In this document: piece after piece, positions 1,064 to 30,373 of the stretch
Layout: each line of letters begins with the position of its first letter
How positions within the stretch are numbered: position 1 is the first letter of the stretch
Assembly: GCA_013151565.1 (NCBI GenBank)
Contig: JAADIB010000055.1
Coordinates: forward strand, 1 to 33,688
Origin: Chlorobiota bacterium
GTDB taxonomy: Bacteria > Bacteroidota > Ignavibacteria > Ignavibacteriales > Melioribacteraceae
DNA: 33,688 nt
Direction of reading: 5' to 3'
Notes under the pieces: model-generated
The model's input: only the letters and a program-made list of their open reading frames with translations
Told to the model about the DNA's origin: nothing
The model's database searches: none
Made by a program: the position numbers and the translations under genes

Positions 1064-1269
1064 AGTAAAAGAAAAAATGAAAAGATTTGTTTCAAAGATA
1101 AATGATTTTTAATAAAAAGGTAATGGAAAAAGAAAATATTTGTAAATTATTGATCAATGATTTTTAAAAAGACAACTAATCTAAAAAAATAATTATTTTT
1201 GGAATGAATATAGTATATTTACAAAAGAAACATTTTATCTTATTATAGATAGTCTAATAAAGGCTGATT

Positions 1270-2142
1270 TTGACTAATAGAGTTCATACGATATACATTT
1301 CATTATTAATTATAATCATTTTCATTACCTTAGCTGTAATTGTTTCCATAGGGTATGATTATTACACAACACCTCTAACTGAAAGATTTTTCCATGAAGA
1401 TTATAGATTGCTTAAACCTAGCGGAAGTATAGGACATGGTTATGGAATTATTGGAACACTCTTGTTATTGATAGGAGTAGCAAGCTATGTTATAAGAAAA
1501 AGAGTGAAACGGTTTGCCCGATTGGGATTATTGAAGCATTGGCTTGAATTTCACATTTTCCTATGCACACTTGGTCCACTTCTTATATTATTTCATACAG
1601 CATTCAAATTCGGGGGAATCGTATCAATAAGCTTTTGGAGTATGGTAGCAGTTGTGCTCAGCGGAATAATTGGGCGATATATTTATCTTCAAATGCCGCG
1701 TTCTATTGACGGTGTTGAATTAAGTTTTGAAGAAAGCAGAGAGTTAAATTATGATCTCAGTCACCAATTACGACAAAAATATAATTTGGATGATTCTATT
1801 ATTAATAGGCTCGATAACTATTCAGGTAACGAAAGCCAGGCGATAAATATATTGAGTTTACTTCCTATTATGATCAAAGGTTTTTGGGAGGATAGAAGCG
1901 CTCTCAATGAAATTACAATCAGCTTAAAGAATAGTAATGTCCCTCGTAAAAATATTAAAGAAGTAAAAAAAATGTGTAAAGCCAAATTGAAATTAAACCG
2001 CCGATTATCGCTCTTAAAAACGACTCAAAGATTATTCAGCTATTGGCATATTATTCATTTCCCATTCGCAATTTTAATGCTTGTAATTATGGTTGTCCAT
2101 GTTGGTATCACATTAGCATTTGGTTCTAGGTGGATTTTTTAA
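1270..2142 (+). CDS. Polytopic membrane protein, predicted di-haem b-type transmembrane electron carrier (ferric-reductase/DUF4405-like idea). TTG start.
   Basis: About 5 TM helices. Two helices with the same predicted in-to-out orientation each carry an H-x13-H pair (HIFLCTLGPLLILFH and HFPFAILMLVIMVVH). The Lys/Arg-rich loops preceding both helices fit cytoplasmic placement. Only a 3-nt gap to the next gene. Confidence 0.55.
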   Translation: MTNRVHTIYISLLIIIIFITLAVIVSIGYDYYTTPLTERFFHEDYRLLKPSGSIGHGYGIIGTLLLLIGVASYVIRKRVKRFARLGLLKHWLEFHIFLCTLGPLLILFHTAFKFGGIVSISFWSMVAVVLSGIIGRYIYLQMPRSIDGVELSFEESRELNYDLSHQLRQKYNLDDSIINRLDNYSGNESQAINILSLLPIMIKGFWEDRSALNEITISLKNSNVPRKNIKEVKKMCKAKLKLNRRLSLLKTTQRLFSYWHIIHFPFAILMLVIMVVHVGITLAFGSRWIF

Positions 2143-2145
2143 GCA

Positions 2146-3474
2146 ATGGAAGTATTACTTGAAAATATAGTGATCTATGGATTTGTCGGGGTTCTTTTTG
2201 TTTTTATTTTTTACATGTATATACATAAACAGAAAAAGGAATCTAAAATTGTTGAGGAAAAGATCAAGAAAGCAAAAAAGATGGGGACTCATGAACCCGT
2301 TTCACTGCATCCGGTCGTTGATGTTAACTTGTGCATCAAAAGCGGGGCATGCATCAGAGCTTGTCCCGAAAAGGATGTGCTAGGCATACGGAATGGTAAG
2401 GCAACAACGATAAATGCTTCGCGCTGTGTTGGGCATAGCGCTTGTTTTATTGCCTGCCCCGTAGGCGCTATTTCCCTGCATATTGGAACTGAACAAAGAG
2501 GCGTTCAGCTTCCTCATGTTAATCCGAATTTTGAAACGAGCATACCTGGAATTTTTATTGCCGGTGAAATTGGCGGGATGGGGTTGATCAAAAATGCAGT
2601 TGAACAAGGAAAACAGGCTGTTGATAATTTAACAAAGACTTTGGATAAAAGTGGGAAAGCAGATTATGATCTAATTATTGTAGGTTCTGGTCCGGCGGGA
2701 ATCTCGGCATCGCTGCAAGCGAAGAAAAATGGATTAAGATTTTTAACGCTGGAACAAGATTCCCTAGGTGGAACAGTTTTTACTTTTCCCCGTGCAAAAA
2801 TTGTAATGACCTCACCAATGGATCTGCCGTTGTATGGAAAACTTAAGTTGGTTGAGACATCAAAATCAGAATTGCTCGACATATGGTTAAAAGTCTTAGA
2901 ATTAAATAATATATCCGTGAGTGAAAATGAGAAAGTAAATGAAATTCAGAAGTTTAATAATACATTCAAAGTTATTTCTACTAAGAATGAATACACTACA
3001 AAAAAGGTTATCTTAGCTATCGGCAGAAGGGGCACACCGAGAAAATTAGGCGTACCCGGCGAAGGAAAAGAAAAAGTTGCATATCGTTTACTCGAGCCGG
3101 AACTGATCCATAATAAAAATATACTGGTTGTTGGCGGCGGCGATTCTGCTGTTGAAGCTGCAATGATACTTTCGGACGAGGATAATAATGTCACTCTTTC
3201 TTACAGAAACGGAAGTTTCAACAGAATCAAACCAAAGAATCTGGAAAGGATTAGTGATAGAATTGAAAACAACTCGATCAATATGCTATATAATTCTACT
3301 GTAACAAGAATATTGGACGATTCTGTAGAACTGAAAATAAATAATGAGGAAACAATAAACGTAGAGAATGAACTTGTTTATATTTTTATTGGAGGTGAAA
3401 TTCCGACAAAATTTCTTGAACATGTTGGAATTAAAATAACCATGAAGCATGGTGAAGCAATGTTGAAAAATTAA
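2146..3474 (+). CDS. Membrane-anchored ferredoxin-domain / FAD- and NAD(P)H-binding oxidoreductase (thioredoxin-reductase-fold, FNR-like, no redox-active CxxC).
   Basis: N-terminal TM helix followed by a Lys-rich segment. Two ferredoxin-type motifs (CIKSGACIRACP, CVGHSACFIACP). Dinucleotide motifs DLIIVGSGPAG and ILVVGGGDSAVEAA, plus an ILAIGRRGTPRKLGVPGE-type motif. No Cys in the flavoprotein part. Confidence 0.85.
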   Translation: MEVLLENIVIYGFVGVLFVFIFYMYIHKQKKESKIVEEKIKKAKKMGTHEPVSLHPVVDVNLCIKSGACIRACPEKDVLGIRNGKATTINASRCVGHSACFIACPVGAISLHIGTEQRGVQLPHVNPNFETSIPGIFIAGEIGGMGLIKNAVEQGKQAVDNLTKTLDKSGKADYDLIIVGSGPAGISASLQAKKNGLRFLTLEQDSLGGTVFTFPRAKIVMTSPMDLPLYGKLKLVETSKSELLDIWLKVLELNNISVSENEKVNEIQKFNNTFKVISTKNEYTTKKVILAIGRRGTPRKLGVPGEGKEKVAYRLLEPELIHNKNILVVGGGDSAVEAAMILSDEDNNVTLSYRNGSFNRIKPKNLERISDRIENNSINMLYNSTVTRILDDSVELKINNEETINVENELVYIFIGGEIPTKFLEHVGIKITMKHGEAMLKN

Positions 3475-3493
3475 TTATGGAATTATTCTTGGT

Positions 3494-5071
3494 TTGATTT
3501 TTAGAATTTTAAAAATATTATTCTTTTTAAGTTTTATGAATATATGGGCACAGATCTCGCCAGGAGATCTCACATCTGCACACAAATCATTGGAGGGAAT
3601 AAGCCACTGCACCAAATGTCATATTTTAGGAGACAAAGTAGAAAATAAAAAATGCTTGGATTGTCATACTGAAATAAACCAACTGATAAATTCTAATAAG
3701 GGATATCATTCGTCATCAGAAGTTAAGAATAAAGAATGTGTAAAATGTCATGGAGAACATTTCGGCAGAGATTTTACAATTATAAGATTCAATAAAAAAA
3801 TATTCGATCATACTTTAACAGGCTTTACACTAAAAGGAAAGCATAAAAAAATCAAATGTGAATCATGTCATCAATCGAAATTTATTGAATCAAAGAAATT
3901 AAAAGATAGAAAAAACACTTACTTGGGTCTGCACCAGAATTGCCAAAGCTGTCATGAGGATTATCATCAAGGGACTTTGAAAAATTCAAATTGCCAAAGC
4001 TGCCACAACACAGAGAAGTGGAGACCAACTGCCGGATTTAATCATGCTGAAACCAAGTTCAAATTAACCGGGGCTCACAAAAATATAAAATGTGAACAGT
4101 GCCATAAAATAGACAAGAGGAATGGCAAAGAATTTCAGAACTTCAGGATTGCGAAGTTTGGTCAATGTATCGACTGTCATAAAGATATTCACTTGGGAAA
4201 ATTTGGAGACAATTGTACGCAGTGTCATACAACACAATCATTTAAATCTATAAAAAACGATAAGAAGTTTGATCATTCAAAAACCGGATTCATTTTAAAA
4301 GATGCTCACAACAATTTGAAATGCAACCAGTGTCATATTAAAGGTGTTTCGGTAAAGTTGAAATCTAAAAACTGCTATGATTGTCATACAGATTACCATA
4401 AAGGTGAATTTACAAAAAACGGCATTCAGCAGGATTGTTCAGTCTGCCATACTGAGAGCAGTTTTACTCCTTCGCATTTCACATTGGATGAGCATTCAAA
4501 AACAAAGTTCGCACTTCTTGGCGGACACCTTGCTGTACCCTGCGGCAAATGTCATCTAAACGATTCTAAGTGGACATTTACTTTTAAAAATACTGAATGC
4601 ATCACTTGCCACGAAAATATTCATGGGGATTTGATCTTAAAATATAGTGATGAAAAAGGACTTTGTGTGAAATGTCATAATTCTGGTTCTTGGGATCAAG
4701 TTAATTTTGATCACGATAAAACAGAATTTAAATTGATAGAGAAGCACGAAAAAGTAAAATGTAGTAATTGTCATTTTATTGATAATCAACAATCATTTAT
4801 TTTTAGTAAATTATCTCACGATTGTAAAACTTGTCATAAAGATCAGCATAATGGTCAGTTTGAAGCAGACTACTTGAATGATTGTTCCAAATGTCATTCA
4901 CCAAATGATTGGAGTGCTGTAAATTTTGATCATGATCAAGCAAGGTTCAAACTTGATGGTTCGCATAAAAACTTATCATGTAATAAGTGTCATAAAGAAG
5001 AAATTATTAACGGCAATAAAATTGTAAAATATAAATTTAAAGATATAACATGCAAAAGCTGTCACTTGTAG
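3494..5071 (+). CDS. Secreted multihaem cytochrome c, 20 CxxCH motifs, built from tandem c7/c3-like trihaem modules. TTG start.
   Basis: Signal peptide MIFRILKILFFLSFMNIWAQ. 20 CxxCH motifs. Recurring unit CxxCH-D-x-H-x-G ... CxxCH ... W ... FDH-x-x-T-x-F-x-L-x-G-x-H ... CxxCH. Confidence 0.9.
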   Translation: MIFRILKILFFLSFMNIWAQISPGDLTSAHKSLEGISHCTKCHILGDKVENKKCLDCHTEINQLINSNKGYHSSSEVKNKECVKCHGEHFGRDFTIIRFNKKIFDHTLTGFTLKGKHKKIKCESCHQSKFIESKKLKDRKNTYLGLHQNCQSCHEDYHQGTLKNSNCQSCHNTEKWRPTAGFNHAETKFKLTGAHKNIKCEQCHKIDKRNGKEFQNFRIAKFGQCIDCHKDIHLGKFGDNCTQCHTTQSFKSIKNDKKFDHSKTGFILKDAHNNLKCNQCHIKGVSVKLKSKNCYDCHTDYHKGEFTKNGIQQDCSVCHTESSFTPSHFTLDEHSKTKFALLGGHLAVPCGKCHLNDSKWTFTFKNTECITCHENIHGDLILKYSDEKGLCVKCHNSGSWDQVNFDHDKTEFKLIEKHEKVKCSNCHFIDNQQSFIFSKLSHDCKTCHKDQHNGQFEADYLNDCSKCHSPNDWSAVNFDHDQARFKLDGSHKNLSCNKCHKEEIINGNKIVKYKFKDITCKSCHL

Positions 5072-6111
5072 TATTACTGTTTATTAGTGCTATTCAATTG
5101 TTTGGGCAAGATTCTCCTCACGGAAAGGATTTTGAACTTGACTGTTTACTCTGTCACACAACAGAAAGTTGGAAGATTGATAAGAACAAAATTAAATTTG
5201 ATCACAGCTCAACAAAGTTTAAATTATTTGGGCAGCATATAGATGTAAATTGTTCATCATGTCATACTGATCTTAAATTTAAGAACACATCTACCGATTG
5301 TGAAAGTTGTCATACAGATGTGCATGAAAATTCTGTCGGTTTTGATTGTGCAAACTGCCATACAACAACTAGCTGGATTGTAAGCGATATTTTACGAATT
5401 CATAGAATGAGCAGATTCCCGCTTCTCGGCTCACACCAAACATCGGACTGCAGTGAATGTCATGTATCTAATTCACTATTGAATTTTCAACCTCTGGGTG
5501 TTGAATGTAGTGATTGTCATATGGACAATTATCTGTCTGCAAAAAATCCAGATCATGTCAGTGCAAATTATTCCACGGATTGTACCGAATGTCATAACCA
5601 GAGTTATCCCTCTTGGATAGGAGCAGGGATTGTGCATGATTTCTTCCCTCTTACCGGTGGACATGCAATTACAGATTGTTATGAATGTCATAGTCAAGAT
5701 GGCTTTGCTGGGTTATCACCGGATTGTTACAGTTGTCATCAAAATAACTATAATGAAACAACAAATCCTTCACATACTACTCTTGGCTTCTCTCATGATT
5801 GCCAATTGTGTCATACTATTGACGGGTGGATACCGGCAACATTCGATCATGATAATAAGTTCTTCCCCATCTATTCTGGCAGCCATAGAGAAGCATGGAG
5901 CAATTGTTCAGATTGTCATACTAACGGAAACGACTATACTGTTTTTTCATGCCTTACTTGTCATGAACATAATCAAGCGGATACTGATAATAAGCATAGA
6001 GAAGTTGGTGGATATGTTTATGAAAGTAATGCGTGTTATTCATGTCATCCAAGTGGAGGCGGAGATGATGCGGCAAAAAGGTTTTTTAAGATGGAAAAAA
6101 TAATGAAGTAA
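5050..6111 (+). CDS. Secreted multihaem cytochrome c, 13 CxxCH motifs.
   Basis: Signal peptide MQKLSLVVLLFISAIQLFGQ. 13 CxxCH motifs. Overlaps the upstream gene by 22 nt and the downstream gene by 1 nt (TAATG). Confidence 0.9.
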   Translation: MQKLSLVVLLFISAIQLFGQDSPHGKDFELDCLLCHTTESWKIDKNKIKFDHSSTKFKLFGQHIDVNCSSCHTDLKFKNTSTDCESCHTDVHENSVGFDCANCHTTTSWIVSDILRIHRMSRFPLLGSHQTSDCSECHVSNSLLNFQPLGVECSDCHMDNYLSAKNPDHVSANYSTDCTECHNQSYPSWIGAGIVHDFFPLTGGHAITDCYECHSQDGFAGLSPDCYSCHQNNYNETTNPSHTTLGFSHDCQLCHTIDGWIPATFDHDNKFFPIYSGSHREAWSNCSDCHTNGNDYTVFSCLTCHEHNQADTDNKHREVGGYVYESNACYSCHPSGGGDDAAKRFFKMEKIMK

Positions 6112-7718
6112 TGAATAAAGTTCTAAATACCATATTATTCGCTTTAATTTTTATATCTAATGTTAAAACACAAACTAATCTTGAAACAATAATAGAGGGC
6201 AAGGTTACATATTTATCGTCACAGAATGTTTACGTAAAATTTGATAACACTGATAAAATTAAAGTTGGTGATACTTTATTCGTAAAACAGAAAAATGATT
6301 ATCTTCCTGCTGTTAAAATAGAATATCTTTCATCCAGATCAACCGCCGGTAAAAAGCTTGGTGATATAAATTTAAGGGTGGGCGATAGACTTTTATATTT
6401 CTATACTCCTACAGCATTAACACATGAACCGGAAATAATAGCGGCGCCAGCGATTTCAGAGCAGACAATCAAAAATGAAGTAAAGATAAAAAGTTCAAAA
6501 AGCAGAACAAGAAAAATTGGTAGAGTTGAGGGACGAGTTTCACTTTCGTCATATTCTAATTTTTCGTCTACTAAGGGAATTGATTTTGTAAGATGGCGTT
6601 ATACGTTTGCCGCGAGATCTCAAAATTTTAATTCATCAAGATTATCGTTCGATTCATATATTTCATTTAATTACAGGTCTACCGATTGGAATTATATCAA
6701 GAATAATATTAATGACGCACTTAAGATCTATTCATTAGCGCTGGGTTATGATATCGGGGACAATTTGAATCTAACTTTCGGGCGGAAGATAAACAGAAAT
6801 ATTACAAACATCGGCGCCATTGACGGACTGCAGCTTCAAGGCAAATTCGGAAAGTTCACATCCGGTGTTATAGTTGGTTCGCGGCCTGATTACAAAAACT
6901 ATAGTTTTAATTCTAATCTTTTTGAATTCGGCGGATTTATTAGTCATTCTGATATTGCCGGATATGGAGTGATGCAAAACTCATTTGCATTGTTTCAGCA
7001 AACCAATGATTTTAAAACTGACAGAAGGTTTTTCTATTTTCAGCACAACAGTAATTTTATTAAACAGATCAATTTCTTCTTCTCAACAGAAGTCGATCTC
7101 TATAAGAAAGAAAACGGGGTTTCGTCATCTGATTTCAGCTTAACGGGATTGTATGTTTCACTCAGATACAAGCCGATTAGAAAGTTAAGTCTTAGCGGTT
7201 CGTTCGACTCGAGAAAAAATGTTATCTACTATGAAACCTATAAAAATTATGCTGATAGTCTTTATGAAAATGCAACAAGACAAGGATTTAATTTTCGTAT
7301 CAATTTAAGACCGTGGAACAATTTATTCTTCCGTTTCGCCTACGGGTTCAGAACAAGAACAGGAGATGTCAAATCATCTCAGAATTTTTCTGGAAGCATT
7401 TCATATACCAGAGTACCTTTCATAAGAGGAACTGTCAGCCTTAATTACAATAACTTAGCAACTTCATATTTGAATGGGAATATTTTTAGTTTGAGTTACT
7501 CGAGAGATCTTCTTTCAGGAATATTATTTGCTACTCTGAATTTTAGAAAGGTATTGTATCAATTTTTAAATGGTCCCGATCTTGATCAGAATATTGTTAC
7601 CCTTGATGTAAATTGGCGGATAATACGATATCTATCGGCATCATTAGCTTACGAAGGAACCTTCGAAACAGAATTCAATTATGGTAGAGTTTATTTCAAT
7701 TTAACAAAAAGATTCTAA
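6111..7718 (+). CDS. Outer-membrane beta-barrel (porin-like) protein of a porin-cytochrome module, with a small N-terminal soluble domain.
   Basis: Signal peptide. No Cys. Alternating hydrophobic/aromatic beta-strand pattern, rich in Tyr/Asn/Ser/Phe. C-terminal ...YFNLTKRF with a terminal Phe typical of OMPs. Translationally coupled to the 13-haem gene. Confidence 0.75.
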   Translation: MNKVLNTILFALIFISNVKTQTNLETIIEGKVTYLSSQNVYVKFDNTDKIKVGDTLFVKQKNDYLPAVKIEYLSSRSTAGKKLGDINLRVGDRLLYFYTPTALTHEPEIIAAPAISEQTIKNEVKIKSSKSRTRKIGRVEGRVSLSSYSNFSSTKGIDFVRWRYTFAARSQNFNSSRLSFDSYISFNYRSTDWNYIKNNINDALKIYSLALGYDIGDNLNLTFGRKINRNITNIGAIDGLQLQGKFGKFTSGVIVGSRPDYKNYSFNSNLFEFGGFISHSDIAGYGVMQNSFALFQQTNDFKTDRRFFYFQHNSNFIKQINFFFSTEVDLYKKENGVSSSDFSLTGLYVSLRYKPIRKLSLSGSFDSRKNVIYYETYKNYADSLYENATRQGFNFRINLRPWNNLFFRFAYGFRTRTGDVKSSQNFSGSISYTRVPFIRGTVSLNYNNLATSYLNGNIFSLSYSRDLLSGILFATLNFRKVLYQFLNGPDLDQNIVTLDVNWRIIRYLSASLAYEGTFETEFNYGRVYFNLTKRF

Positions 7719-7740: not shown

Positions 7741-9003
7741 TTAATTATTCAGACTTCTGATTTTCAAATACAACGCTAATGCAAGGAGAATAAGTATAAT
7801 TGTAGCTACACCATAACCAAGTCTGCGATTGAAGTATTCGTTAATTTCATTATCAGCTAATTTTATAGCCTCATAAGATGCAAGTATTCCCTCATTGGCT
7901 TTTGCAAAAACCTTTGAAGTATCAAAAGTATGGACTAAAGTTCTGGTTTCAATTAGATCCTGTTTTATATTTTTTAAAGAATATTCAATATCAATATTAT
8001 TCATTCCCTTAATATTTACTTCCGCAGATCTAACCTTTGTTGAATCATAAAGGAATGCTAATGTTTTTATTTTCTCATAGATCATTTTCGCTTCATTGTA
8101 ACCGTCCTCTCCTTCAGAATGACAGTCAGAACAAATCGGTGATTCATCAACATTAAGCATTTCATCATTCGGTTTATTGATCAAATGGTAACCGTGGCAT
8201 TCTTCGCAGGCTTTAATATCCATATCGGCAAATTCTTTAGCCATTTTAGAACCGTTGAAATATTTCATATTGTTTATATGACATGAACCGCAGACATGTG
8301 AAATTGATTCTACACCGGGAGGCTTTGCTCCGTGATTACCGTGACAGTCATTACAAGCCGGGGCGCCGATATCTTGCTTTTCTAATAAAGCAACTCCATG
8401 AACGCTTCTCGAATATTCTTTCAATTGGTTTGATTCCAAATTGTACTTATTCATCAGCTCAGTATTACCATGACATTTATTACAAGTTTTGGGAATATTA
8501 ATTGCATAAACGGTTGATCTGGTATCCGATGGAGGTAAAATTTCATGTGACGTATGGCAGTCTGTACATGTCGCAACATCCATATTCCCTATTTTTAATT
8601 GCTGACCGTGTTTGCTAACATAATATTGTGATTCCTGGTCAGTCGGAATTCTTGCCTGGTATAATTGCATTTCAGTAAGATTTGAATGACACCTCCCGCA
8701 AAATCTTGGTATTTCTTTTTTATTGGGAACACCAACAAAACCATTTTTTTTACTCATAGCTTTTTCTTCATCTATCTCTTTCGGATCACCGCCGTGGCAA
8801 CCGGCACATGAAAGTCCGTTCTGCCAATGAATGTCATTTTCAGAATAATGCTCCGGCATCATATCATTTTCAATATGACACTTTATACATTCATCTTGGT
8901 ACTTAGAAGAATTTTGAGAGCCATCGGTTGATTGACCCAAAAGAGTAATTGTAGAGAATAGTAAAACAAGCGAGCAAATTTTCAATAAATATTTCTTATT
9001 CAT
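7741..9003 (-). CDS. Nonahaem cytochrome c with a C-terminal transmembrane anchor; third gene of the Rieske/cytochrome b operon.
   Basis: Signal peptide, 9 CxxCH motifs, a helical C-terminal region, then TM helix GYGVATIILILLALALYL. Lies 12 nt downstream of the cytochrome b gene. Confidence 0.85.
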   Translation of the reverse strand: MNKKYLLKICSLVLLFSTITLLGQSTDGSQNSSKYQDECIKCHIENDMMPEHYSENDIHWQNGLSCAGCHGGDPKEIDEEKAMSKKNGFVGVPNKKEIPRFCGRCHSNLTEMQLYQARIPTDQESQYYVSKHGQQLKIGNMDVATCTDCHTSHEILPPSDTRSTVYAINIPKTCNKCHGNTELMNKYNLESNQLKEYSRSVHGVALLEKQDIGAPACNDCHGNHGAKPPGVESISHVCGSCHINNMKYFNGSKMAKEFADMDIKACEECHGYHLINKPNDEMLNVDESPICSDCHSEGEDGYNEAKMIYEKIKTLAFLYDSTKVRSAEVNIKGMNNIDIEYSLKNIKQDLIETRTLVHTFDTSKVFAKANEGILASYEAIKLADNEINEYFNRRLGYGVATIILILLALALYLKIRSLNN

Positions 9004-9015
9004 TTCATTATCCTG

Positions 9016-10095
9016 TTATAAGTATCCTTTAATTGTGAAAATAATCATATAGACAAGAAAGAAAACACCAATCCAGCGGATGATCTTGCTATTAAATTTT
9101 TTTCGTTTAGAAAATTTTACAAACGGAATTAACATCCACATCAAACCAGCAATCGCGAACGCAAAAATTCCAACGGCTTCTCCTTCAACAAATAAAATAT
9201 TTGCCGGTAGTAATTTTAAAGTTTCAAACATGAACATAAAATACCATTCCGGTTTTATTCCAATAGGAGCGGAAGCTAGAGCATTGGCTTTTGACCCCAA
9301 TTCCCACGGAAAGAACAAAGTAAGGCTAAGTAAAACTATCAAAACAATAATCCAGAGTAACGCATCCTGCAAAACAAAATTTGGGAAGAATGGAATATAT
9401 TTTTTCTGCTTCTCACTAAGTTTTTCAAATTCTTCCGGTTCACTCATCCCTTGTCTTTGAACAAAGAGAAGGTGTATAGTTAAAAGAGTTGTAAATATTG
9501 CGGGCAGAATAGCTACGTGGATTCCGAAAAATCTTGATAATGTTGCTCCGGTAACATCATCACCGCCTCTTAGAATAATTTTTAATGAATCACCCAGAAT
9601 TGGTACAACTCCTACAATGTCAGTTCCGACTTTTGTTGCGAAGAAAGCTAATTCATTCCAAGGTAATAAATATCCACTGAATCCGAATCCCATTGCTAAA
9701 AGAAGCAATACAAAACCGGTAACCCAAGTTAACTCACGTGGTTTTCTGAATGCATCGGTAAAAAACACACTGAACATATGTAGAAAAACAAAAAAGACCA
9801 TCATGTTAGCCGACCAGCTATGCAGGTTACGGATAAGCCATCCGAACTTCACCTTGGTTATTATGAATTGAACACTCTCATACGCATTTTCTTCACCGGG
9901 AATATAGTACATTAATAAAAGAAGTCCGGTAATGACTTGGGTTATAAATAGAAATAAACTGATCCCTCCCATGTAATACCAAATAGAATGGTCATGGACA
10001 GGTACCTTTTTATGCAGTATGAGATTTCTTATCGGAGTTAAATCAAATCTCTCGTCAAGCCATTTTTCGATTTTTGATGTTATATTATTATTCAT
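9016..10095 (-). CDS. Cytochrome b (fused b6-like N-terminal part plus subunit-IV-like C-terminal part) of a bc/b6f-type complex.
   Basis: Family motifs readable: WYYMGGISL, IRNLHSWSANMMV, GYLLPW, RFFGIHVAILP and the Qo-site PEWY (IKPEWYFMFMFE). About 8 TM helices. Confidence 0.9.
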   Translation of the reverse strand: MNNNITSKIEKWLDERFDLTPIRNLILHKKVPVHDHSIWYYMGGISLFLFITQVITGLLLLMYYIPGEENAYESVQFIITKVKFGWLIRNLHSWSANMMVFFVFLHMFSVFFTDAFRKPRELTWVTGFVLLLLAMGFGFSGYLLPWNELAFFATKVGTDIVGVVPILGDSLKIILRGGDDVTGATLSRFFGIHVAILPAIFTTLLTIHLLFVQRQGMSEPEEFEKLSEKQKKYIPFFPNFVLQDALLWIIVLIVLLSLTLFFPWELGSKANALASAPIGIKPEWYFMFMFETLKLLPANILFVEGEAVGIFAFAIAGLMWMLIPFVKFSKRKKFNSKIIRWIGVFFLVYMIIFTIKGYL

Positions 10096-10532
10096 GATAG
10101 CACGTCTTGCGAAGTTATTCTAATTTCATCATCAATTATATCAACAACATATTCCTCCAAAGGTCTAGGAGGGGGTCCTGATATATTTCTTCCGTGTAAG
10201 TCATAGATCCCATTGTGACACGCACAAAAGATCTGCTGGGTGTCATCTCTGAATTGAACAATACATTCTAGATGTGTACATGTAGCAGCCAAGGCTCCGA
10301 AATCACCCTCCACAGTTCGGAATAAAATTACCGGAGTTCTTCCAAATCTAACTATCTTAAATGTGTTATTCTTAAACGCAGCGGCAGAACCGGCTTTAAG
10401 TGAACTCACTTTAACCTCAGCAATTTTAGGGGGTATTAGGTAGGAAATGATCGGATAAACAATTGCCGAAATTGCTCCTAAACTTCCAATACCCAAAAGT
10501 GAATTCAGAAATTTTCTTCTATTTGTTCCCAT
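10092..10532 (-). CDS. Rieske [2Fe-2S] protein with a Tat signal.
   Basis: Twin-arginine NRRKFL followed by a TM helix. Cluster boxes CTHLEC and CACHNG. 4-nt overlap with the cytochrome b gene. Confidence 0.9.
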   Translation of the reverse strand: MGTNRRKFLNSLLGIGSLGAISAIVYPIISYLIPPKIAEVKVSSLKAGSAAAFKNNTFKIVRFGRTPVILFRTVEGDFGALAATCTHLECIVQFRDDTQQIFCACHNGIYDLHGRNISGPPPRPLEEYVVDIIDDEIRITSQDVLS

Positions 10533-10575: not shown

Positions 10576-12219
10576 TTACTGCTCTTTGTTCTCAATTGTA
10601 TTTTTTGATTTTATTTTAGTGTAAACAATGGATATGATTATCAATACTAATCCAACTATAATAAATGATATTACTTTCATCTCATCTTCGGGATGCATAA
10701 TTCCTAAAACTATAGTATATAATATTGTTATTGCAAGAGTCAACATTGCCATCCATCTATATTTTTTATTCTTAAGAATAAGGCTGAAGGCATAATAAAG
10801 AAGCGCTATTGCCAGCCATGTTAAGCCTACATATTCAAGTGGTACTAATAAAAATGTTGAGTATGGAAGCAATATAAATGCAATTCCTAAGTATGCATTC
10901 CTTATAGCCTCGGTTTTAATTTCAAGTTTGTCTTTTTGAGAGTTCAATATCCTTGCACTTAAAAGAGCAACTACTCCGGCATTCATACAACTTAAAGCAT
11001 GGCTGCCTGAAAAGGACATGGTTGCAATTGCAATTATTGCATAAATAAAAAAGTTTGCAATGATGATGATCTTTGAGCGAAACCAGATAGCGGTTGTTAC
11101 AACCAGAATACTCTGCCAGCTTAACCAAATGAATAGTTCCGGGATTTCAAAGGAATTAATAATTGCGATACTTAGTGCACCGTATCCAAGTATGGCAAAG
11201 AAGAAAACAGAATATTTGTCTTGTCCTTTCTTCCAGCAAAGAGTAGATAATAATAAGAATAATATGGAAACTGTAATGAATGAAGTGGTTATCTCAGATC
11301 TAAACTGTGTAACTGTTATAATAGCAAATGAAAAAAGGAAACCGAAACTATTAAAAAAGCTACTTATAACTTTCTGCTTTTCATCTCTACATTCTATATC
11401 TCTAAAAATATTGCCGACTGCTATAGTTATTAGATATGACATTAGGAAAAAGACATTTACATAGGGTTCGCTAACTAATTCTATTTTATTACCTATGACT
11501 AATGGATTATTAATGAACCAAACAAAATGTGTTAAGTATGTAATAACTATACTGTAATAAAAAAGATACGCCCATTCATGTTTTATTTTCACGTATGAAG
11601 TTAGCGCTGTTAAGGATAGAATTGATATAAAGATTATATAAGGTTCGCCGGAAACTAATGATGCTATAAATCCTAACGTCAATCCGATATTGTACAAGTA
11701 TGTTGATTTTCTTTTAATTGCAATAGACAATAATGCAAGTGAAATTATTGCCAGAAAAATAAATTCCAGAATATTATTATCTATAACCGAAGGGTTACCC
11801 CAGTAATGAAGTCTTAGAGTGGAAAAAAACAAAAGTAGAAATCCACTGGCAAAGAGATATCGTGAAATTAGATTAAGAGAATTTTTCCAGAGTCTTGAGA
11901 AACCGAATAAAACAATTGAAATTACATAACCAAACAAACTAGGCATAAATTGGGGCAGTGTACGGAATGGAAGAGTTAAAATAAGTGCAATACCAAGAGC
12001 AAGCACAACTATACCGGCTTTAGCAAACCAAAATTGCCCGATTTCAAATTCTAAGGATTGTTTCTCTTCTTCTGTCTTTTTGCGAGTTTCTACTACAACT
12101 TCTTCATAGACGTTTTCATCTCTGGAAAGATTCAGGAATGATTCAATGCGACTTATTCGACCATTAAGATTCGATAAATCATCTAAGATTTGTCTAATAT
12201 TATCAGATGTTTGATCCAT
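10576..12219 (-). CDS. Large polytopic membrane protein, DUF2339-like (N-terminal coiled-coil/acidic segment followed by more than 12 TM helices).
   Basis: The first 60 or so residues are hydrophilic (LDDLSNLNGRISRIESFL...), then EFEIGQFWFAKAGIVVLALGI and continuous TM helices. Lies 43 nt upstream of the Rieske gene on the same strand. Family assignment is from memory of the architecture only. Confidence 0.5.
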   Translation of the reverse strand: MDQTSDNIRQILDDLSNLNGRISRIESFLNLSRDENVYEEVVVETRKKTEEEKQSLEFEIGQFWFAKAGIVVLALGIALILTLPFRTLPQFMPSLFGYVISIVLFGFSRLWKNSLNLISRYLFASGFLLLFFSTLRLHYWGNPSVIDNNILEFIFLAIISLALLSIAIKRKSTYLYNIGLTLGFIASLVSGEPYIIFISILSLTALTSYVKIKHEWAYLFYYSIVITYLTHFVWFINNPLVIGNKIELVSEPYVNVFFLMSYLITIAVGNIFRDIECRDEKQKVISSFFNSFGFLFSFAIITVTQFRSEITTSFITVSILFLLLSTLCWKKGQDKYSVFFFAILGYGALSIAIINSFEIPELFIWLSWQSILVVTTAIWFRSKIIIIANFFIYAIIAIATMSFSGSHALSCMNAGVVALLSARILNSQKDKLEIKTEAIRNAYLGIAFILLPYSTFLLVPLEYVGLTWLAIALLYYAFSLILKNKKYRWMAMLTLAITILYTIVLGIMHPEDEMKVISFIIVGLVLIIISIVYTKIKSKNTIENKEQ

Positions 12220-12402: not shown

Positions 12403-13923
12403 TTACGGACCATCTCCTTCGTGACAATCGGAGCATAAGGATTCCTGCCAATCTGATTCTTCAACATCTCCTCCGGGATGAATAAAGACTAACGATTCAG
12501 TTATAGCCTCTTTTTGTAATTTCCCCGGTTCTCCCTGCGAATTTATTAAGTGACATAAATTACAATCTTTCGAAATCACCTTACCGCTTTCTGAAACATG
12601 ATTGTCATCATGACATCTAAAACATCCAAGTGATTTTATGTGACCAATATTAAAAGGATATTTATCCCATCTTACTTTCATTTCAGGAAAAATATTTTTG
12701 GAAAATTGTTCTTGAATAGATGAAATAGCTGTTTGTAAAAGATCATTTTTCTCTTCAATCACTTTAGGATAATTTTCAATATAAAAATACTCTATCGTTT
12801 TTCTAATTCCTGCTAATGCTGAATCTGTTGTTGAATAATCTTCACTACAAACTGATACAGCTATTGATTTTATTTCAGGTAACTCCCTAGAAATTTTACC
12901 GGCGGTAATTGCAGTGTTAATAAAAATTTCAGGTGGTTTATAATTATGCGAAGGTCTATTGTGACAGTCTATACAATCTATTTGTCTAATTTCTAAAGTA
13001 TCCAGTGCACCTTTATCCAATGGTTCGTCAGTCGATTCAAAGATTGTTATTTCCCCGGTGTTTTTATCAATCAATTTAACCCAAGGAATATTCTGTCTTC
13101 TATAATCTGTGGCAGCGTATTCAACTTTTACGTTAGAGTTTATATGCCAGTGAATTCCTTCTTGTAATCCGAGAGCATCGAATTTTGCTCCAACTTTCAT
13201 AATTAAGTTGATATCCCATTCACTATTTTCCACATCTCTTAAATAATGGCGCTCCATTCTAATGGAACGCGAGTAAAACTTCTGCGGCCAATGGCATCTT
13301 TCACAAGTTTCCCGAGCCGGGCGTAAATTATGTATTGGTGTTAAAATAGGTTTAGGCACATCTCCAATTATTGTTTTATAAACTTGTCTTAATCCTGAAA
13401 GTTTTGAACGCACATACCAATCAGCGCCTTCTCCTACATGACATTCAACGCATCTTACTCTTGCATGGGGCGAGGACTGGTAAGCAGTAAACTCCGGGAT
13501 CATAACAGTATGACAAGTTTTTCCACAGAATGAAACTGATTCAGTAAAATGAAAAGCTTCGTAACTTCCAACGGCAGAAATGAAAAGAAAAACTGCAGTA
13601 CCAATTATAAAAATAAAAGTTGCATTTCTATGTTCAGGTATATTTAAATCAACAAAAGGAAGTGGTCTCGAAACATATTCTTTTGCGCCTTGAGCTTTTA
13701 ACTGCTTTCTCTTGCGGATCATACCGATAGGGATTAAAATTAAACCTGCAATTAAAAATGCCGGTAAAATAATATATATAATTAAACCGAGATAGGAACC
13801 TCCTTGGTTAAATACAAGAGATATTGTAAGTAAAAATATTATCATTAGGAGAGTAATAACAGCGATGGTTGCGCCAACTAGGGAAGTCCAGTTTTTTGTT
13901 GATTCAGGTAATTTTAGTTTCAT
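12403..13923 (-). CDS. Inner-membrane NapC/NirT-family multihaem quinol dehydrogenase, ImcH-like architecture (3 TM helices plus 7 haem motifs).
   Basis: Three N-terminal TM helices separated by a short loop and a Lys/Arg-rich loop. NapC-like segment FCGKTCHTVMIPEFTAYQSSPHARVRCVECH. Six CxxCH motifs plus one CX3CH (CGKTCH). Confidence 0.8.
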   Translation of the reverse strand: MKLKLPESTKNWTSLVGATIAVITLLMIIFLLTISLVFNQGGSYLGLIIYIILPAFLIAGLILIPIGMIRKRKQLKAQGAKEYVSRPLPFVDLNIPEHRNATFIFIIGTAVFLFISAVGSYEAFHFTESVSFCGKTCHTVMIPEFTAYQSSPHARVRCVECHVGEGADWYVRSKLSGLRQVYKTIIGDVPKPILTPIHNLRPARETCERCHWPQKFYSRSIRMERHYLRDVENSEWDINLIMKVGAKFDALGLQEGIHWHINSNVKVEYAATDYRRQNIPWVKLIDKNTGEITIFESTDEPLDKGALDTLEIRQIDCIDCHNRPSHNYKPPEIFINTAITAGKISRELPEIKSIAVSVCSEDYSTTDSALAGIRKTIEYFYIENYPKVIEEKNDLLQTAISSIQEQFSKNIFPEMKVRWDKYPFNIGHIKSLGCFRCHDDNHVSESGKVISKDCNLCHLINSQGEPGKLQKEAITESLVFIHPGGDVEESDWQESLCSDCHEGDGP

Positions 13924-14067
13924 ATTTTCAATAATTAGTGTCGGAAAAAAGTTTCATAAATATATATAATTATTAAATGATAAAAAAGCATTTTAAGCTA
14001 TTAAATTTCAAAAAAATTCATAAATAGATGAATTAGCGAACAAAAACAATAAAATCTAAATTTTTTT

Positions 14068-14730
14068 TTACTTTTTATGGCACGTTAAACATAAAGCGCT
14101 ATTATCATTCGGTTTCCAAATAGAGAGTGACGGTTTACCGAAATGGCAACCGCTGCATCCCTGAGTATTCCTGCTAATATGTACATCGTGACAAGATGTA
14201 CATTGCATTTGACCATTACTTAAAAGATCCTCATCAATGGTTCCACCTAAACCTGACGGCTCTGACGATGGATCAGCTAATTGATCGTCGGCAGCAGCGA
14301 GCGCAGAGTTATAGGTGAAAGATATTGGATGATGAGAGCTTAAATCGGCACCAATATATCCGAATGGAAGGATAAACCTTGTACCACCGGTATTCCCACC
14401 AATATTATCAATAGCTACTGTTCCATCATGGCAACTTAAACACAATTTCGACTGTGCAGTTGGCTGCCCTATTGCAGCATCAATCGATGAGCTAGAATAC
14501 AGAGTGTATGAAGCTGTTGAAAGCTCATGATTCCAAAGCGGGGGAGCACTAGCAATTGCATTATGAGGAGTATGACACAATATACAAATCTCATTGTTCA
14601 TATATGAAGCTCCGCTAAAGTCATGATGACTGTTTTTAATCCCAGGATAAATCTCAAATCCGTTCCATAATATTACTGGAGATAAAAGTAGGAACAATAA
14701 TATCATTATTAATTTTTGTCTTAGTTTCAT
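14068..14730 (-). CDS. Small secreted pentahaem cytochrome c, paralogue family A (shared module with 20333-20944 and 23987-25678).
   Basis: Signal peptide. Motifs CILCH, CLSCH, CTSCH, CSGCH, CLTCH. Conserved blocks CxxCHTPH, PLWNHE, LCLSCHDGTVA, HPISF, QCTSCHDVH and the C-terminal LCLTCHKK. Confidence 0.9.
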   Translation of the reverse strand: MKLRQKLIMILLFLLLSPVILWNGFEIYPGIKNSHHDFSGASYMNNEICILCHTPHNAIASAPPLWNHELSTASYTLYSSSSIDAAIGQPTAQSKLCLSCHDGTVAIDNIGGNTGGTRFILPFGYIGADLSSHHPISFTYNSALAAADDQLADPSSEPSGLGGTIDEDLLSNGQMQCTSCHDVHISRNTQGCSGCHFGKPSLSIWKPNDNSALCLTCHKK

Positions 14731-14736
14731 AATTAT

Positions 14737-16032
14737 TTATCTAGTATATTTTAATTTTCCATGACATCCTGGCGCACAAGAACCGCCATTTTCTGTTGCT
14801 TTATAATTTAACGGCATTTGCCATTTACCAAATTGCACCTTATCAGCTATAATATGTGGATTGTTAGAACCGTGAATATTATGACACAAAGTACAATTTC
14901 TGCCTTTATTTTTAGAGATATGGAGATAGTGCAAATTAATGTTTCCATTCCTAAAATTTGTTGCTGAGGTTGTTTTTTCTAATTTTAGTGCATCACTTTC
15001 ATGACACTCAAAACAAAGACTAAAATTTTTCGGGTCGGCGCCTTTTACATAATTACCAAATGGAAATTTTGAATTCAGCAAATAAAAATTATTTGATGAA
15101 TGTGGAAAATGACAATCGGTACAATCCCCATCTGCTACTGCTTCATGTGGATATTTTGATTCTGTTACTATTTTATAGATGTTTGCTAGCGTTCTATCTT
15201 CGTCTTTATATTCTTTATTATGACATGAAAAACAAAGGTCTTTACCTTCTTTTAGTAATAATGTTTCAGTTTTCGAAGCATGGGGCGAATGGCATGAAGT
15301 ACAGCTTTTATCCTGGTTAATAATTTTATGGACAACTTTTGCACTCTTAAATTCTTCTCCCATATCATCGTGACATTCCAAGCAAAGATTTGGTATCGCT
15401 TCCTTTACAAGAAATTCATACTTTGAATCATGGGGATTGTGACATTCGGTGCAGCTCCCTTCGTATGCGCCATGAACGGTAGGGAGTTTTAACATCTCCT
15501 TATTACTTTCGTGACAGTTGAAACAGAGCTGTGGGGGTTCTTCTTTCAGTAAGGCTGTGTTTGCCGATTGATGCGGCTCATGGCAAACATTACATTGACC
15601 GCTTACTGCTGGACCATGCTTAACCATATTCTCTTTGTTAATAACATCGTGGCATTTAGCACATAACTCACCAACATTTCCCGACTTCAATAATGATGGA
15701 TTATTTGAACTATGCGGAGAGTGACAAGAAATGCATTCACCGCCGGCAAATGCTTCGTGTGTCATTAATTTTTCGTCAGGTTCATCGTGACAGTCAAAAC
15801 ATAATTCGCTTTTATCTTCAGTCAGTTTGAATTCATTTCCTTTCCCTTTAGGATGGTTTTGAGAAATTTGATCGTGGCATGATTCGCATCCATCCTCAAG
15901 TGCTGGATGGATATTTTTCGCTTTCATAAAAGTATCGTGACACCCAGCTGACAGGCAGTTTTGTTCGCTTTGTGCTTTCAGAGGATAAGCGATAATGGTC
16001 AATAGAATAACAAGAATAATTTGAAGTTTCAT
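14737..16032 (-). CDS. Periplasmic multihaem cytochrome c of paired-CxxCH type: 13 CxxCH plus an N-terminal CX4CH and a C-terminal CX3CH.
   Basis: Signal peptide ending LKAQ. Repeating unit LCxxCH ... H ... G-x-CxxCH-x-PH-S ... LL. Variant motifs CLSAGCH (15937-15957) and CAPGCH (14761-14778). Confidence 0.9.
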   Translation of the reverse strand: MKLQIILVILLTIIAYPLKAQSEQNCLSAGCHDTFMKAKNIHPALEDGCESCHDQISQNHPKGKGNEFKLTEDKSELCFDCHDEPDEKLMTHEAFAGGECISCHSPHSSNNPSLLKSGNVGELCAKCHDVINKENMVKHGPAVSGQCNVCHEPHQSANTALLKEEPPQLCFNCHESNKEMLKLPTVHGAYEGSCTECHNPHDSKYEFLVKEAIPNLCLECHDDMGEEFKSAKVVHKIINQDKSCTSCHSPHASKTETLLLKEGKDLCFSCHNKEYKDEDRTLANIYKIVTESKYPHEAVADGDCTDCHFPHSSNNFYLLNSKFPFGNYVKGADPKNFSLCFECHESDALKLEKTTSATNFRNGNINLHYLHISKNKGRNCTLCHNIHGSNNPHIIADKVQFGKWQMPLNYKATENGGSCAPGCHGKLKYTR

Positions 16033-16044
16033 TTGTATTCCTCG

Positions 16045-18051: not shown

Positions 18052-18617
18052 AATCGTAAAAAATATTGTTCATCATTACCATGCGGATCATGACAATTAA
18101 TGCAATTTTCACTTTCAATATCAGGATGATCTTCATTTGCTTTAATATCGTTTTCTGTATGACATTTAAAACATAATTTTTGTCCGGTTTCAAGAAGTAA
18201 GTTTTTGTTTTTACTTCGATGTGGATGATGGCATTTCGTACAGTAACCTGCGGCAACCGGACCGTGTATAAATTTTGCTTCTTTTTGAAAGTTGTCATGG
18301 CATTGATAACATAATTTGGGTTGTTTTTTTATAAGTTTGAAGCCTTGATCTACATTATGACAATCACTACACAATTTTGCACGATACGGACCATGAAATA
18401 CTAGCTTTGAATTTGCGCTCTTCAAAATGTCTTCCCTCATTTTAACTTTTGAAGAATCTAGATTGTTATTTTTAATCTCTATTTCTTGTTTATTAGGATT
18501 AGGTACCCCGTCAAAGAAGAAAGAAAGAATATCATAGTTTGAACTGCTGCATGCAGAAATTAAGAATGCAAGACCAATAAGCAATGCAGCAATTTTTCTA
18601 TTTAACGAAGTAGCCAT
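18048..18617 (-). CDS. Pentahaem lipoprotein cytochrome c.
   Basis: Lipobox LISAC. Five CxxCH motifs (CSDCH, CYQCH, CTKCH, CFKCH, CINCH) in the paired-CxxCH arrangement. Confidence 0.9.
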   Translation of the reverse strand: MATSLNRKIAALLIGLAFLISACSSSNYDILSFFFDGVPNPNKQEIEIKNNNLDSSKVKMREDILKSANSKLVFHGPYRAKLCSDCHNVDQGFKLIKKQPKLCYQCHDNFQKEAKFIHGPVAAGYCTKCHHPHRSKNKNLLLETGQKLCFKCHTENDIKANEDHPDIESENCINCHDPHGNDEQYFLRL

Positions 18618-18619
18618 TA

Positions 18620-19705: not shown

Positions 19706-19788
19706 ACTTTTGTTAATAAAAGTGTAATTTGTCTATTATTAATCTATTGAATATTTAACAAATAAAAAAAAACCTTTTTTAATATCTG

Positions 19789-20177: not shown

Positions 20178-20268
20178 AATTTCCAAAGTCTTAATCATTT
20201 ATAATAAATCAAAAATCATACCGTATTGAATATAAACTACAATTAGATTTTTAAAAACATTTAAACGG

Positions 20269-20312
20269 CAAAAAAAAACTTCTAAGCAACAAAAGGTTGC
20301 TTAGAAGTTTTT
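20269..20312 (-). terminator. Rho-independent terminator of the tetrahaem gene (bidirectional in form).
   Basis: Perfect 13-bp stem ACTTCTAAGCAAC / GTTGCTTAGAAGT (20278-20290 and 20296-20308) with a 5-nt loop. Flanked by A9 on one side and T4-5 on the other, giving a U9 tract on the minus-strand transcript. Lies 21 nt after the stop codon. Confidence 0.85.
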
Positions 20313-20332
20313 AAAAGATTATTCCTTACTTA

Positions 20333-26837: not shown

Positions 26838-26863
26838 CTGATAAATTAGATAAAAGAAAAAAT

Positions 26864-29074: not shown

Positions 29075-29084
29075 TTCAGCTCTA

Positions 29085-30353: not shown

Positions 30354-30373
30354 TTTCAGCCTAATAGATTACT

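Follow-up and report, generated by a model that had tools for sequence, protein, structure and literature searches.

What feeds electrons into a porin-cytochrome conduit that is encoded together with a putative membrane cytochrome b and a flavoprotein? The question is raised by five open reading frames (ORFs), here called A to E, that lie within nt 1270–7718 of contig JAADIB010000055.1 from a Chlorobiota bacterium (Ignavibacteria, Melioribacteraceae; assembly GCA_013151565.1). The whole stretch of DNA that was analysed, 33,688 nt (33.7 kb) in length, is called the window below. An earlier note on this DNA, made from its letters alone, had proposed that A and B form a split NOX/ferric-reductase-like module passing electrons from cytoplasmic NAD(P)H, independently of quinones, to two multihaem cytochromes and an outer-membrane barrel. 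The ORF coordinates (Table 1) agree exactly with the arrangement it described: all five genes are on the + strand, with successive spacings of 3, 19, −22 and −1 nt.

PCC3 assignment and linkage across genomes

The cluster type to which this locus is compared, PCC3, was defined in Fe(II) oxidisers and other Proteobacteria by He et al. 2017 (Front Microbiol 8:1584, PMC5566968). It comprises a porin, two multihaem cytochromes, one extracellular and one periplasmic (median haem numbers 34 and 21), and an inner-membrane protein of about 300 aa with five transmembrane (TM) helices, SGxxG on TM4 and W-x3-H-x13-H on both TM3 and TM5 (PMC5566968). He et al. noted the likeness of the latter protein to the FRD domain of NOX/FRE proteins and to cytochrome b, and proposed that it carries two b haems (PMC5566968); the insight of the earlier note into the histidine pairs is a rediscovery of that work. 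Later studies of Gallionellaceae and Sideroxydans kept the four-gene definition, with 21, 24 or 27 haems in the periplasmic cytochrome and 10–35 in the extracellular one, for which 10–85 is also given.

Because proteins A, C and D fit the description of He et al. point by point and E is probably its porin, the A–E locus is, judged by that published description, a PCC3-type porin-cytochrome conduit. Protein A has 290 aa, five helices, both W-x3-H-x13-H motifs and SGxxG. With 20 CxxCH motifs over 525 aa, protein C has one haem per 26 aa, as expected of the periplasmic cytochrome, and D, with 13 CxxCH here and 13–64 in homologous positions, corresponds to the variable second one. Protein E has no family match; it shows barrel-like sequence features, and its gene is kept in the cluster. 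Protein B, a membrane-anchored Fe-S flavoprotein, lies outside the published PCC3 definition and is apparently a new element. A literature search found no publication tying PCC3 to Bacteroidota, Ignavibacteria or a flavoprotein. Since He et al. list, in Supplementary Table 6, unnamed ‘other redox proteins’ of 412–805 aa beside related HX13H membrane proteins in porin-less clusters (PMC5566968), B may have been partly anticipated there. The statement of the earlier note that no cluster for extracellular electron transfer with such an input had been described thus needs dividing: the cluster type is published, while the flavoprotein partner is missing from that description.

The linkage of B to A is the strongest evidence that the five genes form a functional unit. 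B follows A in all 80 species-representative loci of Ignavibacteriota and Bacteroidota, a genome set that spans Saprospiraceae, Lewinellaceae, Prolixibacteraceae, Lentimicrobiaceae, Cyclobacteriaceae and other families; a homologue of C (20 or 23 haems) and one of D (13–64) follow wherever the contig allows, and then E. A second scan, with six sequences, gave a more distant set of 80 loci from high-GC metagenome relatives (GC 0.55–0.76). Here B adjoins A or is near it in 66 loci, and the other 14 are cut at most 1.5 kb from A on at least one side. Named matches of a related homologue search belong to Gemmatimonadales, Acidoferrales and Marinimicrobia. The gene orders seen are ABCDE, divergent B'ACDE, CDAB, ACDEB, DABC, ACEBD and CDE-x-AB, the last on an Acidoferrales contig, and a Marinimicrobia genome reads A-B-C-D-D-E. 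In total the A–B linkage is found in at least seven gene orders, at least five phyla and more than 150 loci. Among the informative loci of both sets none has A without B, C and D, and the pair is never without cytochrome neighbours, as the earlier note had expected. Co-location that survives so much rearrangement across phyla argues that A–E are a functional unit, and recurrence in more than 150 independent loci argues that the set is not a product of chance.

Two candidate exceptions were rejected. An apparently B-less clade (L163, L164, L166), in which A is followed by a 21-haem cytochrome, reflects contig truncation: contigs of 95 kb and 550 kb read A-C-E-B-D, so that B is three genes 3' of A. 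The other case, P0182 (418 aa), looked like an A/B fusion; it combines parts of A, of a cytochrome and of B through a chimeric or frameshifted gene call, and was set aside. Many Ignavibacteria (L002, L003, L004, L009, L013, L023, L035, L051, L069) carry between A and B a gene of about 200 aa that does not occur in the window. Its product, a TPR protein anchored at the N-terminus in which the motif PxDxIH(K/N)G is conserved, may be a helper in assembly or cytochrome maturation. The closest relatives come from uncultured Ignavibacteria, namely a hydrothermal-vent metagenome (86% identity) and the metagenome-assembled genome (MAG) locus L001 (70%).

Table 1. Coordinates of the A–E locus and of other features in the window (nt, numbered from the first base of the contig)
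Feature	Position	Strand	Remarks
AT-rich intergenic region 5' of gene A	1064–1269	+	between divergent sigma-54 activator gene and A
Gene A	1270–2142	+	290 aa; TTG start, aligned with Met1 of homologues
TM3 His pair of A, H95-x13-H109	1552–1596	+	both invariant in 117 sequences
TM5 His pair of A, H263-x13-H277	2056–2100	+	both invariant in 117 sequences; predicted orientation as TM3
Gene B	2146–3474	+	442 aa; membrane-anchored Fe-S flavoprotein
B transmembrane anchor, aa 8–26	2167–2223	+	predicted N-out, C-in; in 118/121 homologues
B ferredoxin-like domain, aa 56–110	2311–2475	+	matches to Fer4_10, Fer4_6 and Fer4_21
B flavoprotein part, aa 115–442	2488–3471	+	TrxR/YpdA-like; two dinucleotide-binding domains
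Gene C	3494–5071	+	525 aa; 20-haem cytochrome c, Sec signal peptide
Gene D	5050–6111	+	353 aa; 13-haem cytochrome c, signal peptide
Gene E	6111–7718	+	535 aa; probable outer-membrane beta-barrel
9-haem cytochrome c	7741–9003	−	bc-type complex; C-terminal membrane anchor
Cytochrome b	9016–10095	−	bc-type complex
Rieske protein	10092–10532	−	bc-type complex
DUF2339 protein	10576–12219	−	547 aa, polytopic membrane protein; between bc-type complex and second cytochrome cluster
Second porin-cytochrome-like cluster	12403–20944	−	classical kind
LuxR-type two-component pair	21565–23953
Further multihaem cytochromes	23987–30940	−	11, 6, 14 and 4 CxxCH

Proteins of the locus

Protein A has five hydrophobic helices, with one H-x13-H pair in TM3 (H95, H109) and another in TM5 (H263, H277). 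Across 117 homologues, of 26–86% identity, the invariant residues include W91, H95, H109, S131, G132, G135, R136, W259, H260, H263 and H277; the motifs W91-x3-H95-x13-H109, S131-G132-x2-G135 and W259-x3-H263-x13-H277 are thereby preserved in every sequence. The four paired histidines, on the conservation of which the earlier note had staked its proposal, are invariant also in a harder set of 16 sequences (19–50% identity), in which H56 is lost and H260 nearly invariant. Mean numbers of Lys and Arg among the 117 homologues are 3.8 at the N-terminus, 5.8 in loop 2–3 and 23.4 in loop 4–5, and 2.7, 1.0 and 0.5 in the other loops. Loop 2–3 sets its 5.8 basic residues against no Asp or Glu, and loop 4–5 (aa 139–258), a helical insert of about 120 aa predicted to be cytoplasmic, has a net charge of +9.5. 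As these counts give A a predicted N-in, C-out topology, TM3 and TM5 should run the same way, in agreement with the two same-orientation helices of the earlier note. From this topology it also follows that one histidine of each pair should lie near each membrane face, H95 being placed near the cytoplasmic and H109 near the periplasmic side. Two haems stacked across the bilayer would call for just such a placement, haem binding itself being predicted.

No Pfam or NCBIfam family was matched by protein A. It belongs to a large family, with more than 6,000 relatives in 90% clusters and 3,517 representatives at 50% identity, nearly all of 285–330 aa; where homologues carry a source name, the label is in almost every case "hypothetical protein". 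The window protein does not match Ferric_reduct (PF01794). A scan of the 117 relatives at lax thresholds gave sub-threshold matches to DUF4405 (65 sequences), Ni_hydr_CYTB (30) and Ferric_reduct (23, the best at E 0.004), and to nothing else comparable to these three haem-b membrane families. Profile search against PDB sequences and hhalign against the window's own cytochrome b returned noise only. A first AlphaFold2 model of A, from 20 sequences, was poor (pLDDT 68.8) and was replaced by one from 117 sequences, which has a pLDDT of 83.9, a pTM of 0.75 and helices as expected. We count A among the di-haem b cytochromes in the broad sense, as a remote and unclassified member and not as a demonstrable NOX/FRD protein, and its putative role is that of a transmembrane electron carrier with two b haems in the inner membrane. 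The NOX/ferric-reductase likeness put forward in the earlier note holds for the H-x13-H pairs on TM3 and TM5, and is otherwise an analogy to which, for the window protein, neither family, nor fold, nor a ferredoxin-NADP reductase (FNR)-type domain lends support.

Protein B was studied through 120 homologues from the fetched loci, aligned with the window protein (n=121). Its single N-terminal TM helix is followed by nine Lys or Arg in the next 20 residues, and the family means are 0.3 basic residues before the anchor and 7.0 in the 20 residues after it. Because of this asymmetry, and as a twin-arginine motif occurs in only one of the 121 sequences, the Fe-S and flavin domains are predicted to be cytoplasmic, where the earlier note had placed them. 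The Fe-S/FAD/NAD(P)H make-up that it had assigned to the 442-aa protein is likewise recovered: beside the Fer4-type matches, which mark a domain of the 2x4Fe-4S type, there are matches to Pyr_redox_3 (8e-47, aa 177–432) and Pyr_redox_2, and one to PDB 7a7b, a YpdA/Bdr structure (5.6e-33). The nearest solved relatives are NADPH enzymes, namely YpdA/Bdr, thioredoxin reductase (TrxR) and TrxR-type ferredoxin-NADP reductases. B falls below the cut-offs of the YpdA and TrxR families (178.6 bits vs 339.9 for TIGR04018; 105.1 vs 343 for TIGR01292). No FNR-type domain (PF08022/PF08030) was matched in B, and the dehydrogenase is separate from A, which ends after TM5.

The two ferredoxin motifs of B, C63-x2-S-x2-C69-x3-C73-P and C94-x2-H97-x2-C100-x3-C104-P, are both without the usual second Cys, the first only in part: its second ligand position is Ser, Cys or Thr across the family, while that of motif 2 is His in 120 of 121 sequences. 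The clusters may accordingly be of the [3Fe-4S] type, or [4Fe-4S] with a His or Ser ligand, and on this type the exit potential may depend. Histidine in a cluster motif is characteristic of those Fe-S centres from which electrons pass on to a second protein; the distal cluster of [NiFe] hydrogenases is an example. By this analogy the conserved His of motif 2 could mark the point at which electrons leave B for a partner protein, which we offer as a lead and not as a result.

In the flavoprotein part GxGxxG, GGGDSA and S-Y-R-x3-F-x-R are conserved across the family. The last of these resembles the 2'-phosphate site of TrxR, HRRxxxR, and for this reason NADPH is the more likely nucleotide of B. 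The flavoprotein part has no Cys in the window protein nor in 58 of the 121 homologues, and the redox-active CxxC of TrxR is absent; the lack of Cys excludes disulfide-reductase chemistry. The sequence TSIPGIFIAGE, the C-terminal FAD motif of TrxR, stands in B before the first GxGxxG (aa 115–165, nt 2488–2640), and B stops where the TrxR chain would return to the FAD domain. B is thus apparently a circular permutation of the TrxR fold, with a ferredoxin domain at the new N-terminus. Since the chain runs from anchor to Fe-S domain to flavoprotein, the Fe-S domain would be tethered at the membrane surface. B is putatively the NAD(P)H dehydrogenase that feeds A.

The CxxCH counts of the two cytochromes, 20 in C and 13 in D, add up to the 33 haem motifs given in the earlier note (26–27 aa per haem), and their His contents, 44 in C and 28 in D, are enough for bis-His ligation of every haem. 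In nearly every locus the homologue of C carries 20 or 23 haems, and C gives a weak match to HmcA. The largest D homologues, with 60–64 CxxCH (L010, L021, L028, L056, L065), are from Saprospiraceae, Lewinellaceae and a Bacteroidales MAG, and are probably the ‘undescribed giant cytochromes’ of activated-sludge Saprospiraceae (PMC11495043). By analogy, C is predicted to be the counterpart of the ‘periplasmic’ and D of the ‘extracellular’ cytochrome of PCC3. Protein E matched no Pfam or NCBIfam family, even at E 10 for Pfam. It starts with a signal peptide, beyond which no hydrophobic run exceeds four residues; it contains no Cys, shows at least 13 alternating amphipathic segments and ends in Phe; counterparts with 20–62% identity lie 3' of the cytochromes in related loci. 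These features fit the outer-membrane beta-barrel that the earlier note had seen in this 535-aa protein, and E is predicted to be such a barrel, the probable porin of the conduit.

Proposed electron path and its alternatives

Taken together, the five proteins suggest an outward path from NAD(P)H through FAD, Fe-S clusters and two b haems to C, and through E to D, to which we give an even chance. B would lie at the cytoplasmic face, held by its N-terminal helix, and would oxidise NAD(P)H at its TrxR-like FAD domain, the Y-R...R motif suggesting NADPH. From FAD the electrons would pass the two Fe-S clusters, the second with the conserved His at a ligand position, to the cytoplasm-side b haem of A (H95/H263) and on to the periplasm-side haem (H109/H277). 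They would then go to the 20-haem C, past the barrel E to the 13-haem D, and finally to an extracellular acceptor, for which a metal oxide, a humic substance, an electrode or a partner cell are candidates. The wider proposal, that A and B are a split NOX-like NAD(P)H dehydrogenase which feeds the PCC3 wire without the quinone pool, is widespread, and supplies the missing input of PCC3, is put forward more tentatively, as a possibility we would not call probable. The sequences themselves establish the gene set, its motifs, the predicted topology, the four invariant histidines and a linkage of A–E that holds across phyla; we infer all of the cofactors, the contact between A and B, the donor, the direction and the independence of quinones.

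Outward electrons would run downhill from NAD(P)H with the help of the membrane potential, and such flow would suit redox balancing in organoheterotrophs. The electron moving out and the proton released inside would both dissipate the membrane potential, and the module would for this reason be an electron sink for redox balancing and not a coupling site. The earlier note had held the reverse direction to be equally possible, which for ordinary donors would be thermodynamically unlikely. A second porin-cytochrome-like cluster in the window carries its own NapC/NirT-type quinol dehydrogenase, from which it appears that each conduit brings its own inner-membrane input, here A and B. What the earlier note had named as contrary signs (loss of the histidines, homologues of the pair apart from cytochromes, periplasmic flavoprotein domains, a transcript end at nt 3474–3494) did not turn up where sequence could reveal it, and a scan of the 19-nt gap between B and C found no terminator-like site.

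Several points weigh against the NAD(P)H-fed path. He et al. drew the five-TM protein exchanging electrons with the quinone pool (PMC5566968). The PCC3 clusters of Alpha-, Beta- and Gammaproteobacteria have four genes, with no flavoprotein described; if so, A is able to function with no B beside it, and should proteobacterial PCC3 lack B genome-wide, A would have another partner, most simply quinones, with B as an added input. The sub-threshold similarity of A is strongest to the quinone-reactive families Ni_hydr_CYTB and DUF4405. When the model of A was compared with PDB by Foldseek, no match reached E <= 0.001 and the 50 listed included no haem protein, although helical bundles that carry large inserts are a weak point of Foldseek. 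Where C, D and E lie in the cell is inferred by analogy, the components of PCC3 have so far been predicted only, and in Sideroxydans the PCC3 clusters are not induced by Fe(II) and are down-regulated on Fe(II) in S. lithotrophicus ES-1. Many of the hosts (Saprospiraceae, Gemmatimonadota) are aerobes without known mineral respiration.

Of the alternatives, a quinone-coupled PCC3 survives best, and we judge it unlikely. It is the published hypothesis for PCC3 (PMC5566968): A would be a cytochrome b-type quinol oxidase or quinone reductase on the menaquinone pool, and B an accessory, for example a NAD(P)H:quinone-type dehydrogenase acting at the quinone site of A, or a protective or maintenance reductase, and not an obligatory direct donor. 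The absence of a flavoprotein from the proteobacterial clusters as described speaks for it, as does the excess of DUF4405 and Ni_hydr_CYTB matches over those to Ferric_reduct among the relatives of A, and MsrQ, the closest functional precedent, binds ubiquinone (PMC12525009). A dispensable accessory would, however, not be expected to stay tied to A in every informative locus, in five phyla and seven gene orders, and the recognisable NapC/NirT-type quinol dehydrogenase of the window belongs to a different cluster. The anchor of B and its two-cluster membrane relay also suit transfer from protein to protein better than the reduction of quinone; NDH-2 enzymes need neither.

Inward flow, in which extracellular donors (Fe(II) minerals, Fe(0), cathodes, partner cells) would deliver electrons through A and B to NAD(P)+ or another cytoplasmic acceptor, is improbable. 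In its favour, PCC3 first came to light in Fe(II)-oxidising bacteria, where a role in electron uptake was suggested for it (PMC5566968), multihaem wires are reversible in principle, and in one PCC3 copy of Sideroxydans the inner-membrane component increased as cells acquired the ability to oxidise iron. Against this stand the standard potentials, from which Fe(II)/Fe(III) couples near 0 V should be incapable of reducing NAD(P)+ at −0.32 V; the membrane potential, which would oppose such flow in a cluster that holds no energy-coupling subunit; the hosts, which belong mostly to organoheterotrophic lineages; and the down-regulation in ES-1 mentioned above. A link to Prolixibacter corrosion was considered and dropped, as that literature attributes the corrosion to nitrite.

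We also see little likelihood in a non-respiratory use, by which the reducing power of NAD(P)H would be carried to the periplasm or cell surface for repair, detoxification (cf. MsrPQ), reduction of soluble oxidants or oxygen, or charge storage. The MsrQ-Fre precedent does serve periplasmic repair (PMC12525009), many hosts are activated-sludge aerobes, the giant cytochromes of Saprospiraceae have been suggested to act as capacitors, and the second cytochrome ranges from 13 to 64 haems. A dedicated barrel with a surface cytochrome is on the other hand the hallmark of extracellular electron exchange, and no catalytic periplasmic enzyme is conserved in the cluster. That A and B simply adjoin a cytochrome operon, unrelated to it and with no functional tie, can hardly be true given that their co-location persists through repeated rearrangement in more than 150 loci of at least five phyla.

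Few of the predicted conduits for extracellular electrons are as widespread as PCC3, and its inner-membrane connection and direction are the open points of the literature. A conserved flavoprotein beside the putatively di-haem A provides a concrete, testable hypothesis for the link of PCC3 to metabolism. If NAD(P)H does feed the conduit through B and A, the inputs of extracellular electron transfer extend beyond quinol dehydrogenases, and fermentative or facultative Bacteroidota, Ignavibacteriota, Gemmatimonadota, Acidobacteriota and Marinimicrobia would have a new way to dump reducing power on extracellular acceptors. This would also explain the giant cytochromes of organoheterotrophs such as Saprospiraceae and Ignavibacteria, and A–E would become a five-gene marker set for annotation pipelines.

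Surroundings of the locus and comparison with known systems

The AT-rich region 5' of gene A is likely the promoter region of the five-gene string. The best sigma-70-like match of the scan is at nt 1218–1246 (score 10/12, a consensus match only). The divergent gene upstream (nt 128–1063, − strand) encodes a sigma-54 activator and is kept only in the closest relatives; its presence suggested sigma-54 control of A–E, which was rejected as the motif scan found no −24/−12 site in the region upstream of A. The contig starts with 186-nt inverted-repeat arms (nt 1–186 and 408–593, 95% complementary) that duplicate part of the activator gene, and owing to this the activator is without a C-terminal helix-turn-helix and has a junk ending. 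The repeat looks like a fold-back assembly artefact and not biology.

Directly 3' of E, and convergent with it, are the genes of a bc-type complex (nt 7741–10532). In related loci its 9-haem cytochrome gives weak cross-matches of about 19–24% identity and the other two genes none; the closest locus, L001, has a minus-strand ORF with 6 CxxCH 3' of E, a possible counterpart of the 9-haem cytochrome. The complex is probably not part of the A–E module. The second porin-cytochrome-like cluster comprises a NapC/NirT-like 6-haem protein (506 aa, nt 12403–13923), cytochromes with 5, 13, 5 and 4 haems, an NHL beta-propeller, and a porin-like protein of 668 aa that has no family match and ends in ...QRNF. 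Just upstream of it is a sigma-54-like −24/−12 site with one mismatch (nt 21270–21284, − strand), and another sigma-54-like site is at nt 30989–31003 (− strand). The region of further multihaem cytochromes also encodes two porin-like proteins of 326 and 422 aa without a family match. With about 110 CxxCH motifs in all, the window is an island of extracellular-electron-transfer genes.

Among known conduits, Mtr with CymA and Pcc (OmaB-OmbB-OmcB) with ImcH or CbcL are built on the same logic, with an input at the inner membrane, multihaem cytochromes in the periplasm and at the surface, and a barrel in the outer membrane. As input they use quinol dehydrogenases of the NapC/NirT, ImcH or CbcL type, whereas no NapC/NirT-type gene lies within nt 1270–7718. 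Protein C also differs from the decahaem cytochrome of Mtr-type systems, scoring 37.7 bits against the DmsE/MtrA family (TIGR03508), the cut-off of which is 192.2. The Tmc and Hmc complexes of sulfate reducers reportedly (Pereira et al. 2011) unite a multihaem cytochrome c of the periplasm, a cytochrome b in the membrane and an Fe-S protein on the cytoplasmic side. Their electron path need not pass through free quinone, in which it is like that proposed for A–E; they differ in having an HdrD-like cytoplasmic subunit with CCG domains, no outer-membrane barrel, and inward flow to sulfate reduction. The di-haem succinate:menaquinone reductase of Bacillus and Wolinella, which leads electrons from a flavoprotein through Fe-S clusters to two b haems across the membrane, parallels the proposed path; its proteins are unrelated, its substrate is succinate, and its acceptor is menaquinone at the outer face.

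NOX, FRE and STEAP proteins (PF01794) have two stacked b haems held by His pairs on TM3 and TM5 with a 13-residue spacing, the same motif as in A, and they receive electrons from cytoplasmic NAD(P)H via flavin, as proposed for A and B. NOX has six helices followed by its dehydrogenase; the five helices of A and the anchor of B also make six, with the dehydrogenase after the sixth. The likeness has neither Pfam support (for the window protein) nor Foldseek support, and the dehydrogenase part of B, being TrxR-type and not FNR-type, is not homologous to that of NOX. Further differences are the two Fe-S clusters of B, which are absent from NOX, the division into two polypeptides, the 120-aa insert of A, predicted to be cytoplasmic, and the proposed acceptor, a multihaem cytochrome instead of O2 or an Fe(III) chelate. 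Closer in function is the two-component, NOX-like MsrQ-Fre system of E. coli, in which MsrQ, a haem-b protein of the membrane, receives electrons from a distinct NAD(P)H flavoenzyme in the cytoplasm and passes them to a periplasmic partner (PMC12525009), both as proposed here. In this system a quinone donor was first assumed and later overturned by redox measurements (PMC12525009). MsrQ has one haem and FMN; Fre, the gene of which lies apart from msrQ, is a soluble enzyme without Fe-S; and the acceptor is a molybdoenzyme, unlike the extracellular wire proposed for A–E.

The nearest system remains PCC3 itself, whose five-TM protein, periplasmic-type cytochrome of about 21 haems, variable second cytochrome and low residue-to-haem ratio are all found here as well, together with a gene for a probable large barrel. 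PCC3 as published has four genes, is proteobacterial, is modelled as coupled to the quinone pool and is presumed to act in Fe(II) oxidation, whereas the set described here has B as a fifth gene and occurs in Ignavibacteriota, Bacteroidota, Gemmatimonadota, Marinimicrobia and Acidobacteriota.

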